DNA of 64,000 nt from assembly GCA_964016885.1 (NCBI GenBank), contig OZ024743.1, positions 99,696,001 through 99,760,000 of the forward strand, written 5' to 3'. Below the pieces are notes generated by a model. The model was not told the origin of the DNA, did not search any database, and saw only the letters and a list, made by a program, of their open reading frames with translations. The stretch comes from Eledone cirrhosa. Its lineage: Eukaryota. The translations under genes were made by a program, and so were the position numbers. Each line of letters opens with the position of its first letter. Position 1 is the first letter of the stretch. This document shows positions 981 to 34,796 of the stretch, piece by piece.

Positions 981-1200
981 ATATATATATACATATCCAG
1001 CGTGGAAGATGAACGTTAAACGATATATATATGTACATATACATACATACATATATATATATATATGCAGAGGTTATATTTAATTTGTTGCGATTCAACA
1101 AGCTTAAACATTTTTATAACTGATATAAAGCACTCAACAAGTTAGTGGAGTAAATACACAATATATTAATAAATGGAAACTATATTTATAAAACCATATT

Positions 1201-1266
1201 TATTTTATTATATATATTTCAAGGGCAACCAAGGCAAATTATGGTGCACTTTCATCAGATAAAATA
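1201..1266 (-). ncRNA. Minimal type I hammerhead ribozyme
   Basis: Minus strand TATTTTAT-CTGATGA-stem II-GAAAT-ATAT-ATA-ATAAAATA; perfect 8-bp stem I, palindromic stem III loop. Confidence 0.8.
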
Positions 1267-1380
1267 CAGATTTGTTTTATAAATAAATATTGACATACCC
1301 GGAAAAAAGACAACCTTAACGGTTGGAGCTTCCTGGATAGTGGAGATAATATTTTATTGAGGGTAATACAAAGTTATGAG

Positions 1381-1720
1381 TGAGTATGCAAATGAGTGTC
1401 CGAAAAGTTGAAAAGATAACGGTTTATTTAAATTAAACTGTTGGAAGAAGATGATATGTAAGGGAGAGAGAAACAGAGAAAGTTATTTCTTCTTTCACTT
1501 AGATATATTTACGCTCTGTATATTTTTCCATTAAAATTTATTTCTTAGTTCGTTCTGACTATCTTCACTATCACTATGTATAATCGTTCTTTCTTAAATC
1601 TTCTCTCTTTCTCCTTCCTTTTCTTTTTTCTCTCTCCCTTACATATCATCTTCTTCCAACAGTTTAATTTTAAAAAAACGTTATCTTTTCAACTTTTCGG
1701 ACACTCATTTGCATACTCAT
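1381..1720. repeat. Inverted repeat, ~95-bp arms (1381-1475 / ~1627-1720), each with ATGCAAAT
   Basis: TGAGTATGCAAATGAGTGTCCGAAAAGTTGAAAAGATAACG and its reverse complement CGTTATCTTTTCAACTTTTCGGACACTCATTTGCATACTCA. Confidence 0.85.
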
Positions 1721-1754
1721 ATATATATGTGTATTTATATATATATATATACAC

Positions 1755-2222: not shown

Positions 2223-2291
<69 letters not shown>

Positions 2292-2421
2292 GTGAGGTTT
2301 TTTTTACAAAATGTAAAATAACCGAGGTGTCCTACACGAGTGAAAGTATAAAGAAAAGAAGATGAAATCGAAAATGCAACTGGAGTCTTATTTTTTTTTA
2401 AATATATATATTTATTTGGTT

Positions 2422-2459
2422 CCTTTACCGGTTTCGCAGTTCTTCTGATTTTCAAAAGT
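2422..2459 (-). ncRNA. Degenerate hammerhead in the Penelope pLTR
   Basis: ACTT-TTGAAAA(for CTGAAGA)-TCAG-AAGAA-CTGC-GAAAC-CG-GTA-AAGG; core substitutions suggest it is inactive. Confidence 0.6.
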
Positions 2460-3328
2460 AGAGTTGAGATGGAGGGTCTGTGGTTTTTCTCACATCTGCT
2501 TGATCTCTGAATGTTACTTGTTTTATATGGAAAAAGTGGCTCGAAATGCCAGGTTTTTCGAGAAGTAATTTGATTGGTTGGTCAATAATTATAATAAATT
2601 TCGCGCCAGTTCACGTTACAAAGTTCTTCAAACAAGGGGGGCGCGTCACAGTTTGTTTTTTCTTATATGAGTGTTTGAATTTCTTTTTACTTAAAAAAAG
2701 GGGGTCTCACGAAGGCTTTTTTTTAATAAACGTAATTTGATTGGTTATAAATGAAATTATTGCTGTCACGTGAACAAGTTTTCATTAAATTTTCGCGCTC
2801 TTATTTGGAAATCCATTCTGTAGCCTTTTTAGAGAATTTTATAATAAGTAAAAGATAATGGTCAAGAGAAATGGGATGGGAGAATTGTTCTGGTTCAGTG
2901 AATATGGTTAGTTCGCTGGGGTGTCAGAATTCAGATTTTCTATTGAATAAAGAAAGTAAAGAAATGTATGTTTATTTGTGTGTGTGTTGTGTGTGTGTGT
3001 TTGAATTTCTTTTTACTTAAAAAAAGGGGCTCACGAAGGCTTTTTTTTAATAAACGTAATTTGATTGGTTATAAATGAAATTATGGCTGTCACGTGAACA
3101 AGTTTTCATTAAATTTTCGCGCCCTTATTTGGAAATCCATTCTGTAGCCTTTTTAGCGAATTTTATAATAAGTAAAAGATAATGGTCAAGAGAAATGGGA
3201 TGGGAGAATTGTTCTGGTTCAGTGGATATGGTTAGTTCGCTGGGGTGTCAGAATTCAGATTTTCTATTGAATAAAGAAAGTAAAGATATGTATGTTTATT
3301 TGTGTGCTTGTGTGTGTGTGTGCGCGCG

Positions 3329-3392
<64 letters not shown>

Positions 3393-3953
3393 TGTGTGTA
3401 TGTGTGTGTGTGTTTGAATTTATTTTTACTTAAAGAAAGGGGCTCACGAAGGCTTTTTATTAATAAACGTAATTTGATTGGTTATAAATGAAATTATGGC
3501 TGTCACGTGAACAAGTTTTCATTAAATTTTCGCGCCCTTATTTGGAAATCTATTCTATATACCCCCAGCAAAAATCTATCCAACATACTCCCAGCAAAAC
3601 TATAAGGATAATCCCAGAAACCATAGACAAAACTATAACCCTACTAACAAAAACCGAAGATCCCTGAACACAAGGCAGGACCCGATCCGCAGATCACAAC
3701 CCACACAAAACCTATTCCAAAACCGTAGAACCCTGCCCACACAGAGCCTGTTCCAAAACCGTAGATCCCAACCCACACAAAGGAACAAAATCTACAACCC
3801 GGACTATCAACAAACCGAACCTCAATACGTCCGAAACTTCTATACAAGACCACACAACAACAGGGGAAATACCATTAGATATAATAATACCATTGAAAAA
3901 ACATTCCAGAAAAATCATTTTTTAGACCAAGGCTACAGGACCCACGACACCCG

Positions 3954-6202
3954 GTGGCACAAACCGATTTTGAAAAACCGAAAATAATCAACCTTTCAAA
4001 CACAAACCTCTCAGCCCAACAAGTAAAAATTCTCTCCAAAGGACTGAAATTCACACCAACACCACAATACTCTAACCCCAATGAGATAAATGACGATATC
4101 TCACACTTCTGTAGAAAATTACGTCTCACAGAGGAATTCTTTGACAAGGAGAATAACGACGAATCAATTGTACGGAATAAAAGCAGCTACAACCCAACAA
4201 AAGGTAGAAACAGAGTTCTAGACAAATTTTGTGACCACATAGCTACTTTCCCATACCATGAACTACCGCAACCTAAACCCAAACCTAACACGAGTCGAAG
4301 GGAATGGGAGATTATCCATGAACTAAAAAACAATACGGACATTATAATTAAGGAAGCGGACAAGGGAAGTACTGTTGTCATTATGGAAGCTGAAATATAT
4401 AAAAATTCTATGTTCTCTCTCTTACAAAATACTAATTACTATGAAAGAGTAAAAAACTATCAGCAATCAAAAACAATGACCAGATTAAACACACTGATTT
4501 ATCGATACCAGGAAGACCTAACTAAAAAAGAACGCGATTATTTAACACATTTTGAATACAAAACCAGCAACCTTTACGGACTTCCGAAGATCCACAAGTG
4601 TAAAATAATTAACGATGCCTGTAAACAATCCACCTCAGCCTGCGTGAACACACAATACCCCATAGACCTTAAATTAAGACCAATTGTAGCGGGCCCACAA
4701 TGTGAAACACACAGACTGAGCAACTTTATAGACATACTACTAAAACCAATTCTCAAACACATACCAAGCCTTGTAAGAGACGATCTGGACCTCTTAAACC
4801 ACCTCCCCAAATATGTCAACAACGACACTATTATTGTATCTTTCGATGTAGTGAATCTCTACACAACGATCCCACACCAATACGGACTAGAAGCAATAGG
4901 ATTCTGGCTAGAGAAATATCCCAACGAGATACCTGACCGAATAGAAAAAAGCTTCATCACCGAGGGATTAAAATTCATCTTACAGAACAACTTTTTTGAT
5001 TTCGATGGCAGTACTTACAAGCAAATATCGGGGACTGCGATGGGTACAAAAGCCGCTCCAACTTATGCCAACTTAGTCATGGCATACTTAGAAGTCCAGA
5101 TATATGAACAGTCCAAATCAAAATACGGATTGAACTTCCACAAATATTTATCAGAGAATTGGAAACGCTACTTGGATGATTGTCTCATTCTTTGGTCCCA
5201 CACACTCGGCCAACTGAAGGATTTCAAAAACTTAATAAACGGCATCAATAACCACATCCAATTCACAATGGAATACAGCCAAGATCAACTCCCATTTCTG
5301 GACATCTTAATCATAAAAAAAGACACAAATATTGAAACTGACATACACTACAAACCAACAGATTCCAAACAATACCTGCTATTCACCTCCAACCATCCAA
5401 AGCACACGAATACGAACATTCCTTTTAACCTAGCAAGAAGAATTTGCACAATTGTCTCCAATTATGAAACACGAAATAAAGGAAATTCTACTCGAAAGAG
5501 AGTACCCACCATTACTAATAAATAATGGAATAGAAAGGGCTAAAGCAATAGGCATTGATGAATTACGAAAACAGAAACAAATTCAAGGTACGTCCAATAT
5601 TCTATCATATATCTCAACACACAACCCAAGAAATGCGGAAGCTTACAATACTATTCACAAGAACATCCCACTACTAAAACAAAACCCAAGAATGAAAAAA
5701 GCCCTTGAAACACACAAAATAATCAAAAGCAAAAGACAATCGAAATCACTGAAAACATTACTCACCAATGCCAAATTACCTACCACAAACCCACAACCAA
5801 CTGTCAAAAAATGTGGTCGCTCTAATTGTGGAAGCTGCACTCACCTTATTGAAGGCAACACGTATACATTTAAATCAGGACAAAATTTTACTGTAAAAAA
5901 TCACTTCACTTGCTCATCAAAAAATGTATGCCATTAAATGTAAAGGATGCAATGAAGATTATATAGGACAAACTAAACTCACACTCAGAAACAGAATGAC
6001 AGTACATCGCCAACAATTACGAGATCCAACCACGAGACAGATACCACTAAGCGCACATCTAGACATATGTGCAAGTAATAAGACACCCAAATTCCAAGTC
6101 TTCCCATTTTACCTTTGCGCTAACAATACAACAGTACAAATACGAATAAATAAGGAAAATATGTTTATTCAAAAATATAGACCAGCATTAAATATGGTTT
6201 AA
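3954..6202 (+). pseudogene. Penelope-like reverse transcriptase + GIY-YIG endonuclease, two frameshifts (~5480, ~5925)
   Basis: Motifs ADKG, YGLPKIHK, LRPIV, SFDVVNLYT, GTAMGT, RYLDD, LPFLD, CGRSNCGSC, YAIKC..C...YIGQT across ORFs 3954-5525, 5452-5937, 5924-6202. Confidence 0.95.
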
Positions 6203-7509
6203 TATACATTATGTCAACACCATAACATGCTAACCATCCAAACAGACACATACACACACACACTCACATAACACCTGCTACTTTAGAAAATAAAAACCCG
6301 AACTAAATAAACCTTAACATACGTTTGCGCTGACAATACAACAGAACAAATACGAATAAGGAAAATATGTTCATTCAAAAATATTCCTACTAAAGGAATC
6401 ATTTGCCTACACACACACACACACACACAATATATATATATTCTCTTCATCTTAACATGCTAACCATACTCCCACACACACATAACACTCATACACACAC
6501 ATAACAACCCCTCCCCCCACCCCCTACACACACAACTCCCTCCCCCATTTCTACTAATAGAATCACTTTCCTACACACATATATACACACACAAAATATA
6601 TATATTCCCACACACACATACTCCCACACACACATACTCCCACACACACATAACACCCATTTACACACACACACAACTCCCTCTCCCATTTCTACTAATA
6701 GAATCATCTTCCAATACACACACACATACACACACACGCACAAATAAACATACATATCTTTACTTTCTTCATTTCAATAGAAAATCTGAATTCTGACACC
6801 CAGCGAATTAACCATATTCACTGAACCAGAACAATTCTCCCATCCCATTTCTCTTGACCATTATCTTTTGCTTGTCATAAAATTCTCTAAAAAGGCTACA
6901 GAATAGATTTCCAAATACGGGCGCGATATTTAATGAAAACTTGTTCACATGACAGTCATAATTTCATTTATAACCAGTCAAATTACGTTTATTAAAAAAA
7001 GCGTTCGTGAGCCCCTTTTTTTTAAGTAAAAAGAAATTCAAACACACACACACAACACACACACAAATAAACATACATATCTTTACTTTCTTTATTTCAA
7101 TAGAAAATCTGAATTCTGACACCCCAGCGAACTAACCATATTCACTGAACCAGAACAATTCTCCCATCCCATTTCTCTTGACCATTATCTTTTGCTTGTC
7201 ATAAAATTCTCTAATAAGGCTACAGAATAGATTTCCAAATAAGGGCGCGAAATTTAATGAAAACTTGTTCCCGTGACAGCCATAATTTCATTTATAACCA
7301 ATCAAATTACGTTTATTAAAAGAAAGCCTTTGTGAGCCCCTTTGTTTTAAGTAAAAAGAAATTCAAACACTCCACTCATATATGAAAAAACATATATATA
7401 TATATATATATGAAATACCAATGATGGTTGGCAAATCACTGATGAGGGACTAATTTTATAATATGTAACCCATGTGCAACCACACAGTTTTCCTTTTTCT
7501 TCCCATGTC

Positions 7510-22537: not shown

Positions 22538-23224
22538 GGACTAAATGAACATTTTTATCCTGGTACATGAATAGCCAAGCTTCTCAGGGGGTAATTCCAT
22601 ATATGGTAAAAGTGATTGTCACAAGGATTGGTCAAAAGTTTGTTGTTGAGACACATAATTCTATCATGGCAATTTGTGGAAGGAAGAGGTAGCTGAACCT
22701 GCCAGTAGAAGAAAGAGGGAGAGGGAGGGGAGGAAACCCAGCCGTGCGTTGATAGTGCCAACCCAGCAGGATCCTAAGGGCAGGAGGTGAAGAAAGTATA
22801 CTAGAGAGGGGAGGAGGTGGAAGTAGAAACAGTAATTAAATCAATATGGAGTAAATATATAGAAGAATAATAAGAATGTTAAAAATATAAAACACAATTT
22901 CTGGTTACTATTCCCTTACTACCATCATCATGTCTCTCATTTATATATCTTTTTACACATTCTCATACGCACCCTCTGTATTATATGTAATTTTTCATGT
23001 TTCAACTTAAGCTATATAAATATCGAGTTTTGTCATAACTAATCACTGCCATGTCTAAATTATAACCATCAACATAGTCAAGGTATGTCAGGCATCAACT
23101 TATTTTATCTGTTAAAATACCTCAGTATCTCTGAAATATGTATAATAAAATATATTTGATCACATGAATGTCTATATTTATTAATATTTTGAAGTAATAT
23201 ATATATATATATATAGACATATAT

Positions 23225-23842
23225 GGAAAAAATGAAACGAAATTTCATTTCTCACTCCTAGTACGGCTGTTACTTAAATATAAGTATATATACGTACATA
23301 CATATATGTATGTAGGTATATGTATGTAGATATACATACTTATATTTACATACATACATATATGTATGTACGTATACATACGTACATACATATATGTATG
23401 TACGTATACATACTTATATTTAAGTAACAGCCGTACTAAGAGTGAGAAATGAAATTTTGTTTCATTTTTTCCATTTATCGTTTTCGGTGTGCCCGGCCGA
23501 TTAACTCACACGATATGCAAATTAGGCTGCTCAGCCGTTAATATGCATAAGGAAAGTATATACTTTCAGACATTCAATCATCTGGCAGGAAGGTATACGA
23601 TACTGACGATAGCTAATAAGCTTGAAACTAGTACATCGTTCCTTTGTCAGTGTTGAACAAAAGGGCAACGATGGTTGCTAAACACTGTACGGCTTAATCC
23701 GGGCTGTTTGTTTGTTTACAAACAAACCGAGCATTATAATAAATGTTCGATAAACCCATACGTACATATATATACATGTGTGCATGTATGTATACATACT
23801 ACTGTATGCCTGTATACATACTACTGTCGCCTGTATACATAT
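23225..23842 (+). mobile_element. Retrozyme-like element family R2, with short inverted arm at 23225-23310
   Basis: Reverse-complement homology to 25628-26343; contains ATGCAAAT (23515) and a hammerhead. Confidence 0.8.
23598..23638 (+). ncRNA. Minimal type I hammerhead ribozyme (R2)
   Basis: CGATA-CTGACGA-TAGCT-AATA-AGCTT-GAAAC-TA-GTA-CATCG; one stem I mismatch. Confidence 0.75.
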
Positions 23843-23899
23843 AGGCTCTGATACCATCAACACGATAAACACAGAACTGGCATATCTAAGAACTGACTA

Positions 23900-23955
23900 A
23901 CTGCCTGATGAGGTCATAGCCTTTCAATGGCTATCATCGAAATATATATAGCAGT
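23900..23955 (+). ncRNA. Minimal type I hammerhead ribozyme (separate family)
   Basis: ACTGC-CTGATGA-GGTCATAGCC-TTTCAAT-GGCTATCATC-GAAAT-ATAT-ATA-GCAGT. Confidence 0.85.
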
Positions 23956-24651
23956 AAATAAAGGATTATGAGTTAATGCAATTGACTTATGTTTCGTCAC
24001 TATATATATATATATATATTTGTATATATATTTATATATGTATATGTATGTGTATGTATGTACACATATATATGTATATGTGTATGTATGTATTTGTATG
24101 TGTATGTACCATTATGTATGTGTGCTTGCCTGTGTGTGTGTGTGTGTGTGTGTACGTGTGTAAGTGGGCGAGTGTGTGAATGTGCTTGTTGACACCTGGA
24201 ATATATATTAAGAGAAACTTCACAATAAGGGGAATCACCCCAACACTTGAATCTGTTGATGGAACCTTTTCTGCCTTTGTGACCCTTATTTAAGCCTTAA
24301 AGTATTAGCTACTAAAGAATTTCCCTTTTCTTTAAACCATTGAAACCCACCCATCCTGTAGACACCTGTCTTACAGGCATTGTTAGTTTAAGTGATAAAC
24401 AAGGATTGGTATTCCAATTTTGAATTTGTTTACAGTATTCTTTCTGCCTTTGTTAATATTATAGCTTTAAAGGATTAGCTTTTAATGAATCCCCTTTCTT
24501 TAAATCCTTCAACCAATGACCTACACCCATCCCAATCCCCACCTTCTCCTACCACCAGATAAGGAAAGATATAAATACTACCATTTACTTGGACAGCCAG
24601 CTTCCTGATGATTTCTCACGAATTAAACAGTTCTAGTCCTGTAGAAGCTCT

Positions 24652-25627: not shown

Positions 25628-26343
25628 TATATAAGTATGTATACGTACATACATATATGTATACAGACGTACAGCAGTATGTATATATATATACATACAT
25701 GCACACATATATATATGTACGTATGGATTTACCGAACATTTATTATAATGCTCGGTTTGTTTGTAAACAAACAAACATCCCGAATTAAGCCGTACAGTGT
25801 TTAGCAACCATCGTTGCCCTTTTGTTCAACACTGACAAAGGAACGATATACTAGTTTCAAGCTTATTAGCTATCGTCAGCACCGTATACCTTCCTGCCAG
25901 ATGATTGAACGTCTGAAAGTATATACTTTCCTTATGCATATTAATGGCTGAGCAGCCTAATTTGCATATCAAGTGAGTTAATCGGCCGGGCGCACCGAAA
26001 ACGATAAATGGAAAAAATGAAACAAAATTTCATTTCTCACTCTTAGTACGGCTGTTACTTAAATATAAGTATGTATACGTACATACATATATGTATACAG
26101 ACGTACAGCAGTATATATACATACATGCACACATATATATATGTACGTATGTTTACAAACAAACTGAGCATTATAAAAAAGGTTCGGTAAATCCATACGT
26201 ACATATATATATGTGTGCATGTATGTATATATATACATACTACTGTACGTCTGTATACATATATGTATGTACGTATACATACTTATATTTAAGTAACAGC
26301 CGTACTAAGAGTGAGAAATGAAATTTTGTTTCATTTTTTCCAT
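25628..26343 (-). mobile_element. Retrozyme-like element R2: ~1.2 tandem ~434-bp units (-) plus inverted arm 26151-26343 (+)
   Basis: ATAAGTATGTATACG recurs at 25631 and 26065; strand switch at ~26150; (TA)n on both flanks. Confidence 0.82.
25844..25884 (-). ncRNA. Minimal type I hammerhead ribozyme (R2)
   Basis: CGGTG-CTGACGA-TAGCT-AATA-AGCTT-GAAAC-TA-GTA-TATCG. Confidence 0.8.
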
Positions 26344-26388
26344 ATATATATATATATATATGTGTATATATATATATGTGTATATATA

Positions 26389-30808: not shown

Positions 30809-31393
30809 TTGTTGAGAATATTTCCAAGTACATTCATAAATCTATAATGTTTAATAATAACCTTTTTCATTAGTCAGATAGCAGCATATATTACAGTAAG
30901 AATCCTAACAAGAGAGAAAGAGAACAGAGAATGATTTCTGTGATGGAATGCAGTACTTCTTGAAATGTAAATATATTGTGCAATTTGTTTTTTCCTTTTT
31001 TCTTTTTTATACCTTTGCAAATAATCTTCAGTAGTTTTCAATAAGTTGTTGAAACAAAACCTACAACATATTCAACTAGAAAGTGTGTTTCCTGGGCACA
31101 TGTACTCAATAGATGCTACCAGATTACTATAGCAAGTTAGTAAGACATATATGTATAAAGTTCTTTTGAGCAATAACTATAGATACATCAATTGTGGGTA
31201 AGAGAAAGCTATTACTGATAAATACCAGAATGTTATTGAGAACTGCTACAACTGAATAAGATGCCTAAACATAATTGCATGAATTTCCTACATTGACTTT
31301 AAATAAAATAGATCTTTATTTGAAGCTATGTATTTTTTTTACCAAATGCTTTTATAAAGATTTTTTTATATTTCCTAAGGTTCATTTGTTTTG

Positions 31394-31452
31394 CTAATTC
31401 TCATACTAATTTGCATAATTCTCATACTAATTTGCATAATTCTCATACTGAT
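31394..31452. repeat. 21-bp tandem repeat containing ATTTGCAT
   Basis: (TAATTCTCATACTAATTTGCA)x~2.6. Confidence 0.8.
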
Positions 31453-32353
31453 TATGATGAAGTGGGAGTTCAGCTCGTTTTTCACCTAAACCTACTCACC
31501 CTTTGGTTTAGACTGTATGCAATTTAGAATAGGTATACAGAATCCTTGTGTGCCTAAGAGGCAGCTAAAAGAGTTGGTGCCAGGAAGAATATCTAGCTGT
31601 ATAACAGTGTCTCAAAAGGGAGCCTATATAAATGCTTGCATGGGTTTGACAGGTCGTCCACATTGGGAAACAAATCTGGCCAGACTTGGCCATGCCGTAC
31701 CTTGCTCCGTGCCTTTGGATGACACCATTACGAGGAGGGACAGGCCATGTGTGTGTGTGTAAATTAGGATAACTGATAAACTACATCTGGTAAGCTAAGT
31801 TTTCATGTTTTAGCAGCTACAACTCAGACACAGCTACTATAATGTTTTCAATAATTCAACATCATTAACAACTATAAAGAAAGAGTATTAGATGTTTGAA
31901 CGTAGGTATGGCTGTGTAGTTCATGGCTAGATCACTCTATGCACCACTTTGAAGAAGTTTATTCTACCTTAGAATGCTTAAGGCATTGGATTAAAAATAT
32001 TTCAGTATTTGTCTGGCTCACTACCCTCTGGCAGATCAACTTTATCTTTCATCATTTCAAGGTCAATAAATAAAGTTTGCTACCATTGTGGATTTTTTTC
32101 TTTTTCTCTTTCACATGAAGAAATCAGCTGTGTTCCAATATGAAGATGGATGGGTTCCACCAGATTTAAAATGGCCAATATATGCCATGTGTCAAGGCAG
32201 CACCCCTATAGCTTAATCAATAGTTAAGAGCATAATTTATCTTTACTTTCTGCCATAGTCTCAGGTTGACCAACAAAGTTTTGTAAATGAAATTTGGTAA
32301 ATAAATACTGTACAGAAGCCCATTACATATATATTTAAATATGATTATATATA

Positions 32354-32884: not shown

Positions 32885-33004
32885 AGGTGAGTTTTATTGT
32901 AGTACAATAAAGCAATGCAGATATCGGATAAGAAGCACTCTACAGTTTGTAGGACTGGAGTATACATAATATAAGATCAAAAGATGGTTAAAGGAGTTCC
33001 ATGT

Positions 33005-33073
33005 ATTTTATTATGCGCATTTCAAAAACAAACATCATCATGCAATAATATTTGTGTTTTCATCAGATAAAAC
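33005..33073 (-). ncRNA. Minimal type I hammerhead ribozyme
   Basis: Reverse-complement copy of 33166-33234. Confidence 0.8.
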
Positions 33074-33165
33074 AGGAGAACATGATATGAAGGCTAAAAA
33101 ACACTATGTTGATTTAAAACTGCACTATCCACAAGTGTTTTTTAGCCTTCATATCATGTTCTCCT

Positions 33166-33234
33166 GTTTTATCTGATGAAAACACAAATATTATTGCATG
33201 ATGATGTTTGTTTTTGAAATGCGCATAATAAAAT
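33166..33234 (+). ncRNA. Minimal type I hammerhead ribozyme
   Basis: GTTTTAT-CTGATGA-long stem II-GAAAT-GCGC-ATA-ATAAAAT. Confidence 0.8.
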
Positions 33235-33265
33235 ACATGGAACTCCTTTAACCATCTTTTGATCT

Positions 33266-33302
<37 letters not shown>

Positions 33303-33517
33303 TTAAAAATGTACATCCACATATGTATACTGAAATACTAGTATGCATATGAATACACACACGTATACATATGTAGATGTACCGAGTTTTTTCACTGGTC
33401 ACTTTACTGTGAGTGTCCAGCTATTCTGTATGTAAACACACAGACAAACCGGTTTTTAGAGTCATACTGGTTTTTGAGGAAACACCTTTCCTCTATTCTC
33501 CAGAAAGCCAGACAAGG

Positions 33518-33562
33518 AATATTGAACTAGTTTCGTTGTTGTTACAACTCATCAGCAATATT
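33518..33562 (-). ncRNA. Minimal type I hammerhead ribozyme (R1)
   Basis: Reverse complement of 34162-34206. Confidence 0.9.
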
Positions 33563-34161
33563 TACCTATCTTCCGGCCTTTCTAGAGAATCGTAAAAGCA
33601 CATATCGTTATATGCTTTTTCTATGAAAATTAGTAGTGGGCAGACCAATTTGCATAGAGCGTGAGTACGTACCGGTTCAACGGAGACGATAAAAACAAAT
33701 AACGAAACGAAACCAAATTTCGCTTCGCCTGCAACTCACTTTTGTCTGGCTTTCTGGAGAATAGAGGAAAGGTGTTTCCTCAAAAACCAGTATGACTCTA
33801 AAAACCGGTTTGTCTGTGTGTTTACATACAGAATAGCTGGACACTCACAGTAAAGTGACCAGTGAAAAAACTCGGTACATCTACATATGTATACGTGTGT
33901 GTATTCATATGCATACTAGTATTTCAGTATACATATGTGGATGTACATTTTTAACTTAATTGTTTAAGCGTCAGTCATACAAAAGTGAGTTGCAGGCGAA
34001 GCGAAATTTGGTTTCGTTTCGTTATTTGTTTTTATCGTCTCCGTTGAACCGGTACGTACTCACGCTCTATGCAAATTGGTCTGCCCACTACTAATTTTCA
34101 TAGAAAAAGCATATAACGATATGTGCTTTTACGATTCTCTAGAAAGGCCGGAAGATAGGTA

Positions 34162-34206
34162 AATATTGCTGATGAGTTGTAACAACAACGAAACTAGTTC
34201 AATATT
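34162..34206 (+). ncRNA. Minimal type I hammerhead ribozyme (R1)
   Basis: AATATTG-CTGATGA-GTTG-TAACAA-CAAC-GAAAC-TA-GTT-CAATATT: canonical core, 7-bp stem I, palindromic ACTAGT stem III. Confidence 0.92.
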
Positions 34207-34796
34207 CCTTGTCTGGCTTTCTGGAGAATAGAGGAAAGGTGTTTCCTCAAAAACCAGTATGACTCTAAAAACCGGTTTGTCTGTGTGTTTACATACAGAA
34301 TAGCTGGACACTCACAGTGAAGTGACCAGTGAAAAAACTCGGTACATCTACATATGTATACGTGTGTGTATTCATATGCATACTAGTATTTCAGTATACA
34401 TATGTGGATGTACATTTTTAACTTAATTGTTTAAGCATCAGTCATACAAAAGTGAGTTGCAGGCGAAGCGAAATTTGGTTTTGTTTCGTTATTTGTTTTT
34501 ATATATATATAAATATATATATATACTGTACAGAAGCCCCTCACATATATATTTAAATATAATTATATATATTTATTTTGGTGTGGTGTGAAAAACAGTA
34601 TTCACATCTCTTATGCTCATTTTGCATTTCATATCAATCTTAAAAGAACCAGGGTCAAAGCATTTGAATTAATATCACAGATTAAAAGCCCTTGAAAAGC
34701 ATGCTCCAGTATGGCCATAGACCAATGATTGAAACCCAGCAAAAGAAAAATATAATAAAAACTACTGGAACTAATTTTATTAATATTAGAAGAACA

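Follow-up and report, generated by a model that had tools for sequence, protein, structure and literature searches.

The hammerhead repeats R1 and R2 in the 64,000-nucleotide stretch of Eledone cirrhosa DNA analysed here (the window) carry a module whose predicted RNA fold is a three-way junction conserved over five families. The junction coincides with two fixed 3' ends and lies beside an invariant octamer, a combination that is new as far as the literature searched shows. R1 and R2 are retrozymes, hammerhead repeats of the non-autonomous Penelope-like sort, and as such elements of a known kind; the module within them is real and selected. From the modelled folds and the position of the ends, the junction probably positions a borrowed Penelope-type reverse transcriptase (RT) and sets two internal start points for it.

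R1 and R2 are both built of non-coding tandem units, of 466/467 nt (R1) and ~430 nt (R2), and no open reading frame (ORF) of at least 130 aa in the ORF list of the 64-kb window overlaps them. Each unit carries one type I hammerhead whose loop 3 is a palindromic ACUAGU, with core and stems read from the sequence; an Rfam scan of the window returned no match at gathering score, the R1 and R2 hammerheads included. Insertions are partial tandems with an inverted 5' copy, set inside (TA)n, and arrays at R1/R2 loci in the genome reach ~30 units. The R1 insertion of the window (33299..34502) joins an inverted copy (33299-33751, minus strand) to 1.63 tandem units (33742-34502, plus strand, period 467), with (TA)n on both sides. 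Its hammerhead lies at 34162..34206 (+), with a cut predicted from sequence and pairing after GUU at 34199, and the inverted copy has a module at 33620..33739 (-) and a hammerhead at 33518-33562. The R2 module at 23440..23549 (+) precedes a type I hammerhead with ACUAGU loop 3 at 23596..23639 (+), predicted to cut after GUA; a second R2 insertion has its module at 25933..26042 (-) and its hammerhead at ~25843-25886. Hammerheads of other families adjoin these copies: an inverted pair without the module directly beside R1 (32960-33255, cores 33066 (-) and 33173 (+)), and one directly after an R2 copy (23895-23970, core 23905 (+)). A search of the 3.0-Gb genome gave 24,195 matches to a pattern for the 3' half of the module, against 0 for the control, and 7,597 matches to a pattern for the R1 hairpin P2.

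Like the metazoan non-LTR retrozymes, R1 and R2 are AT-rich tandem repeats that code for no protein, with units that span a few hundred bases and contain one type I hammerhead each; at 430-467 nt they slightly exceed the 170-400 nt reported for metazoan retrozyme RNAs. Metazoan retrozymes form dispersed arrays and are proposed to be mobilised by Penelope-like elements through circular RNA, and the accessible parts of the papers concerned state that the mechanism of mobilisation has still to be worked out (PMC7229834; bioRxiv 10.64898/2026.07.22.740005); a further source on their anatomy, also available in part, is PMC4209133. An RT-start structure, a fixed pair of 3' ends and an octamer all go unmentioned in those same parts of PMC7229834 and bioRxiv 10.64898/2026.07.22.740005. 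At the level of titles and abstract openings, no published description of the junction or of the octamer in retrozymes was found; supplements may list related families.

The initial annotation described an ordered motif string common to R1 and R2. Written as a regular expression, this string matches the window four times, at 33984 (+), 33740 (-), 23441 (+) and 26041 (-). The distances it gave from the octamer to CTGAnGA were recovered exactly, 100 nt in R1 (34069 to 34169) and 88 nt in R2 (23515 to 23603), and the alignment of the two modules stands well clear of shuffled controls (score 77.5, shuffle mean 23.7, sd 4.3, z 12.4). No dinucleotide shuffle reached that score, in 2000 trials or in 1000 with the whole R2 unit as target. 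The description of the two repeats as otherwise divergent does not hold, however. Alignment of the 225 nt that follow the ribozyme is as good as that of the module (score 124 versus 46, sd 6.4, z 12.2; 0/1000 shuffles). Most of the unit is thus colinear between R1 and R2, which are relatives, and the sole weakly aligning stretch runs from 25 nt past the octamer to the ribozyme (85/2000 shuffles). Judged by these alignments, the module is common to R1 and R2 by descent and not by transfer between unrelated elements.

In the fold predicted for R1, a helix (P1) closes a ring made up of hairpin P2, 12 nt of U-rich single strand and a small hairpin, P3, and is followed by hairpin P4. On the plus strand, the 5' arm of P1 (GUGAGU, 33985..33990) leads into P2, a 13-bp AT-rich hairpin (33995..34023), the U-rich single strand (34024..34035), P3, a small GC hairpin directly 3' of site B (34036..34056), the P1 3' arm (ACUCAC, 34058..34063) and P4 (34066-34104), whose 5' strand is the extended octamer. 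None of 200 shuffles folds as well. The long stem that had been proposed to close between GTGAG and CTCAC is thus present in R1 and in typical R2 copies, and is missing from the R2 copy of the window (arms 23440-23446 and 23505-23511), where the P1 3' arm is mutated and the fold differs. Separate folds predict the same arrangement, with P2, a U-rich linker and P3 enclosed by P1, in five families (R1, R2, R4, R7 and R8); R4 was found by pattern search, and R7 and R8 came from 79 stretches of 10 kb placed arbitrarily and a further one directed at R4, and were then searched. Folded alone, 10 of 13 representatives give the junction; R2a2 and R4b do not, and R2c does so partly. The inner P1 pairs have a probability of 0.87-1.0 in wide context in five of six representatives, and of 0.6 in R8. 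The junction core folds better than shuffles in 5/6 representatives (0-8 of 300), the R7 junction being no better than its shuffles (35/300).

The letters of this structure change from family to family. P1 reads GUGAGU/ACUCAC in R1, GAGUGAG/CUCACUC in R2 and R4, GAGCGA/UCGCUC in R7 (a double-sided change from U-A to C-G) and UGAAGC/GCUUCA in R8; P2 has C-G in R1 where R2 has U-A, and P3 is a different hairpin in each family. The predicted closing helix P1 is therefore kept through sequence change across the five families. Since these share ancestry the independent changes are few, and two MAFFT alignments placed the P1 arms out of register, so that the comparison is a reading of pairs and not a formal count of covariation. 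R7 copies (L264-L294) have an insertion of ~100 nt after P1, itself a long hairpin, with a second perfect octamer and a near-match.

The 3' ends of insertions fall at two places in the unit, sites A and B. Among 40 distinct R1 3' ends, 20 lie at site A (-111 to -103 from the octamer), 17 at site B (-38 to -33) and 3 elsewhere; 37/40 thus fall in 15 of 466 nt, in two windows that were drawn after seeing the data and with most loci taken from similarity searches. The 40 R1 5' ends, by comparison, spread over the unit from -286 to +168. Site A corresponds to 33958..33966 (+), where the inverted copy also ends (33299, minus strand), and site B to 34031-34036, at the U-rich strand; run X1 has loose ends into (TA)n at both, at 33966 (A) and 34035 (B). 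No R1 3' end (0/40) lies between -32 and +162 of the octamer, and terminal copies therefore lack P3, the P1 3' arm and the octamer. Such is the R1 terminal half-module at 34452..34502 (+), which consists of the P1 5' arm and P2, is without those three parts and ends at site B into (TA)n. In R2, with site A at ~23419, site B at 23474-23478 and the octamer at 23515-23522, an inverted terminal half-module (23220..23262, -) ends at site B; the second R2 insertion has a terminal half-module that ends at site B into (TA)n (26309..26345, +) and an arm that ends at site A near 25629.

A census that covered anchors at site A and site B extends the pattern to further families. Copies that stop after the anchor into microsatellite number 25/32 (A) and 26/32 (B) in R1, 43/78 and 52/78 in R2, 16/23 and 12/17 in R7, and 13/20 and 12/15 in R8; the automatic list of R2 ends (154 entries) is blurred by subfamily differences. 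Measured from the end of the P1 3' arm, site B is 28-37 nt upstream in R1, R2a, R2b, R7 and R8, and it falls within the longest predicted unpaired run of the R1 circular monomer. The tail between A and B measures 58-72 nt in R1 and R2. Flanks read by eye show TA-type runs at 35/37 of the R1 ends at A or B, and only 4/41 TA-type trinucleotides of the R1 unit lie inside the two end windows, so a primer match alone does not explain the fixed ends. R1 and R2 both keep a small hairpin at site A (33958-33970; 23413-23425), preceded by a long AT-rich palindromic one. Many R8 copies (L295-L318) begin at the P3 loop, possibly an RT stall point; the query was built from such a junction.

Could the junction be nothing special, a stretch that related repeats keep by descent and whose helices come from the rod-like folding of a circle? 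The repeats do align equally well outside the module, as noted above, and circular units are predicted to be 65-67% paired; with pairing almost everywhere, a helix is not special by itself. Descent and rod-like folding do not, however, account for a 12-mer that stays unchanged in five families while the letters of P1 and P3 turned over, nor for ends that track the junction in four families, and we regard this explanation as very unlikely. A second possibility is that the fixed ends are true 3' ends of the RNA, made by a nuclease in the exposed strand or by a Pol III stop at T runs, from which the RT would simply start, with the junction only shaping the RNA. Site B does lie in the longest unpaired run and, in R1, directly after five Ts. 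The ends of R2a copies, though, are 4-8 nt past the T run, and R2b copies, whose T runs are no longer than four, stop at the homologous place. Moreover, insertions pass both sites repeatedly (761 nt here; arrays of ~30 units), so the template reads through A and B, and internal starts were demonstrated for the Penelope-like element PAc according to the available text of PMC11167929. Taken with these points, true RNA 3' ends are unlikely.

Penelope-like elements offer a closer match. Their insertions are partial tandems, show 5' truncation with an inverted copy and target (TA)n (PMC8557442, as available), and for Poseidon PAc the accessible part of PMC11167929 reports that, in vitro, paired ends are internal RT starts bounding a tail, and that RNA 3' of them is needed. 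R1 and R2 have in common with these elements the partial tandems, the inverted copy, the (TA)n targets and two 3' ends with an optional tail. Because the stretch between A and B corresponds to the Penelope tail, which marks two RT starts in vitro, positioning of the RT is the most likely role of the junction. From ends that track the fold we infer a fold that docks the RT; this is also how the initial annotation's alternative of an RT-recognition structure gains real if indirect support, the ends being tied to the fold, and its alternative of an internal promoter may hold for the octamer alone.

These comparisons lead to a model in which a Penelope-like endonuclease would nick (TA)n and the borrowed RT, bound at P1/P3, would prime with a 2-4 nt TA match. 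Priming would take place at site B, on the U-rich strand inside the ring, or at site A, ~16-25 nt 5' of P1. The RT would then copy one or more rounds of the ribozyme-cut monomer or circle and would often fold back, making the inverted copy. The stretch between the two sites would be the Penelope tail of R1 and R2, and TATGCAAATNAG would be hidden in an RNA hairpin once transcribed.

Several features set R1 and R2 apart from the elements on which this model is based. Unlike coding Penelope-like elements they have no ORF, and their tail of 58-72 nt compares with 30-40 nt given for Penelope-like elements in the available text of PMC11167929 and PMC8557442. Their putative start strand is U-rich and lies within a closed three-way junction, whereas that of PAc is described in the accessible part of PMC11167929 as an AC-rich stem-loop; their putative start sites are 5' of the nearer ribozyme, and those of PAc, by the same source, ~100 nt 3' of the ribozyme and inside the ORF. 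The predicted ring of R1 and R2 may resemble the template domain of telomerase RNA, and the RT would belong to the same broad family. In telomerase RNA, a single-stranded template lies in a ring closed by a long-range helix. Penelope RTs are placed as sister to telomerase in the available text of PMC8557442. Unlike telomerase, there is no repeat addition here, and the RT would copy on through the whole R1 or R2 RNA.

The octamer forms the other half of the module. The extended octamer TATGCAAATNAG (34068..34079, +; octamer 34069-34076; an R1 subfamily with G at +9) is the word common to the five families, in which N differs by family. The octamer is perfect in 65/68 distinct R1 and 93/100 R2 copies anchored on other letters, which bears out its expected conservation within families, and likewise in 18/20 R7 copies, 18/22 R8 copies and both R4 copies seen. 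It stands 86-100 nt before the ribozyme CTGA in all five families, and its distance to P1 varies from 1-5 nt in R1, R2 and R8 to 33 nt in R7. The octamer thus behaves as a part separate from the junction, given that the distance to the ribozyme is kept and that to P1 is not. It pairs in P4 above chance in 4/6 representatives (1, 6, 6 and 7 of 300; the others 17 and 89), and its partner strand in P4 differs in letters and register in every family. An invariant strand whose partner is free to change would, we infer, suit a signal in the DNA more than recognition as an RNA helix. The available text of PMC10812921 gives ATGCAAAT as the canonical OCT1/2 site. TATGCAAATNAG is thus a constraint separate from the junction; its most likely role is to bind a POU factor as DNA, within an internal promoter, which sequence conservation makes about an even chance.

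The same word occurs in an unrelated context. In 23/24 of its loci, R3, a coding Penelope-like element that motif reading suggests to be Hydra-like, has this 12-mer ~140 nt ahead of the ribozyme and on the other strand. In the window (1070-1735; also L343) it is represented by the 3' region of the coding element with a hammerhead and the reversed extended octamer, and the inverted 5' copy of R3 places the reversed octamer ~60-70 nt before the open frame. A first impression that the R3 ORF runs antisense to the ribozyme was dropped, longer stretches showing an ordinary inverted 5' copy. Nor is the octamer a general feature of hammerhead repeats here: several families do without it, one with 23 copies. 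Three 21-nt tandem repeats lie at 31390-31453, and in two of them the minus strand has a perfect TATGCAAATTAG.

Is the module, then, mainly a DNA promoter of the snRNA type, in which the octamer and its neighbours let each unit transcribe the next and the helices are incidental? A 12-mer that is invariant except at position 9 and keeps a steady distance to the ribozyme would suit such a promoter, as would the extra octamers of R7 (two perfect, with a third near-match) and a TATA-like word ~40-50 nt downstream in four families. The host's own U1 promoters tell against the snRNA type. In a comparison restricted to U1, 0/9 upstream regions (drawn from 42 U1 matches) have an octamer, the POU/Oct site used in snRNA distal elements, within 390 nt, and one has an octamer at -399. 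These U1 genes (L375-L383) instead have in common the distal word ATTAYYTCCCTTG, located between -234 and -271, together with TCAG at -56/-57; U1 tandem arrays have a period of ~2674. With host U1 promoters lacking the octamer, the label snRNA-type is unsupported. A weak profile built from six U1 promoters finds no PSE-like word at a shared position in the six representatives, and the best scores for the U1 distal word within units are 2-10 bits against 17-27 for true sites, with a weak match just 5' of the R2 octamer (p 0.045-0.07, uncorrected).

There are precedents for internal promoters in repeats of this kind. The newt satellite 2 promoter reportedly includes an octamer. As cited in the accessible part of PMC2220036 (Coats, Zhang and Epstein 1994), newt satellite 2 has an internal snRNA-type promoter, a precedent that lends the promoter explanation some weight; the available text of PMC6765202 has the pLTR promoters of Penelope-like elements transcribing the next unit, and that of PMC6155905 contributes no further information about promoters. 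R1 and R2 resemble newt satellite 2 in being hammerhead-bearing tandem units with a proposed internal promoter (PMC2220036, as available), and differ from its snRNA-type promoter in that they have no shared PSE-like word and their host's U1 genes use another distal word. A module that is mainly promoter would also leave the two fixed ends and the double-sided change in P1 unexplained, and is quite unlikely. Docking of the RT by the junction and a DNA role for the octamer could nevertheless be combined: a cassette of ~120 nt might be read twice, as DNA through a POU site driving each unit and as RNA through a telomerase-like ring presenting a U-rich template to a Penelope RT related to telomerase. 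We offer this combination tentatively.

Base changes in the R1 units bear on the nature of the template. The R1 of the window differs from the typical unit at seven positions, all A-to-G and six of them at P2, in or just before the hairpin (33992, 33995, 33996, 34001, 34010 and 34011). All three R1 units of the window carry these six, which are private to this insertion in the genome, and a pattern that required two of the six matched only the three window units and one other locus, L181 (also L353; G000:C3:245519531). There, neighbouring units differ at 43 positions, 43/43 of them A-to-G when read on the strand of the ribozyme; 42 of the 43 follow U or A, and 0/15 GA sites are changed, a context that we take to be the signature of ADAR. 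The changes stop at the ribozyme and unedited units adjoin, which shows that one insertion can combine different monomers; upstream is G-rich sequence that does not belong to R1. The A-to-G changes in the P2 hairpin thus look like RNA editing of the template, and by their strand they support the ribozyme strand as the likely template. Edits common to consecutive units would be consistent with several passes round a circle, or with a single molecule being copied repeatedly, and may alternatively come from a lost or unassembled source copy.

Across 34 R1 insertions P2 has 8 A-to-G sites against 0 T-to-C, 4 of the 8 coming from the window alone, and outside P2 there is no A-to-G excess (19 versus 18 T-to-C sites). 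A unit-wide editing bias is not seen in R1 (30 A-to-G versus 26 T-to-C sites). In R2, 107 copies show no A-to-G excess in P2. Among the first 100 of 7,597 P2 matches, four insertions have A-to-G and none T-to-C, too few to count.

A coding partner with the module was sought in the window and beyond it. The window holds a 5'-truncated Penelope-like element (2286-7400) with an inverted 5' copy and 324-nt repeats, presumably Neptune-like by its motifs, whose 775-aa frames are open in many copies. This family has two 3' ends of its own, 64 nt apart, and the module is absent from it in 30 loci. No coding element with the module turned up in 32 further stretches, a small sample of the families of this genome. 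A ribozyme pattern for other ACUAGU families gave 35 matches, with similarity to Penelope-like proteins in 0/30 loci fetched. Penelope-like fragments beside R1/R2 at L013, L044 and L135 were considered as parents and set aside, since they look like neighbours in the same (TA)n. Runs X4 and X5, whose contigs match 33742-34208 of the window and which are labelled as two other organisms, were likewise set aside as evidence of expression: each has a single contig of 495-496 nt that goes back by one unit, and tandem DNA looks the same.

In the literature found, the Penelope tail is tied to RT start sites in only one in vitro system, as the available text of PMC11167929 describes it; a junction in five natural families with thousands of insertions supplies ready-made mutants and rescue pairs for internal initiation. 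The junction likewise offers a way to trace the mobilising element. A single mutation in the octamer, invariant as it is, would cleanly test self-transcription, and the fossil edits bear on whether the template is circular. Should the cassette be read twice, it would be the first cis-element defined for retrozyme mobilisation, and with the hammerhead it would make a protein-free unit of ~400 nt whose transcript is cut and circularised before it rolls into the genome.
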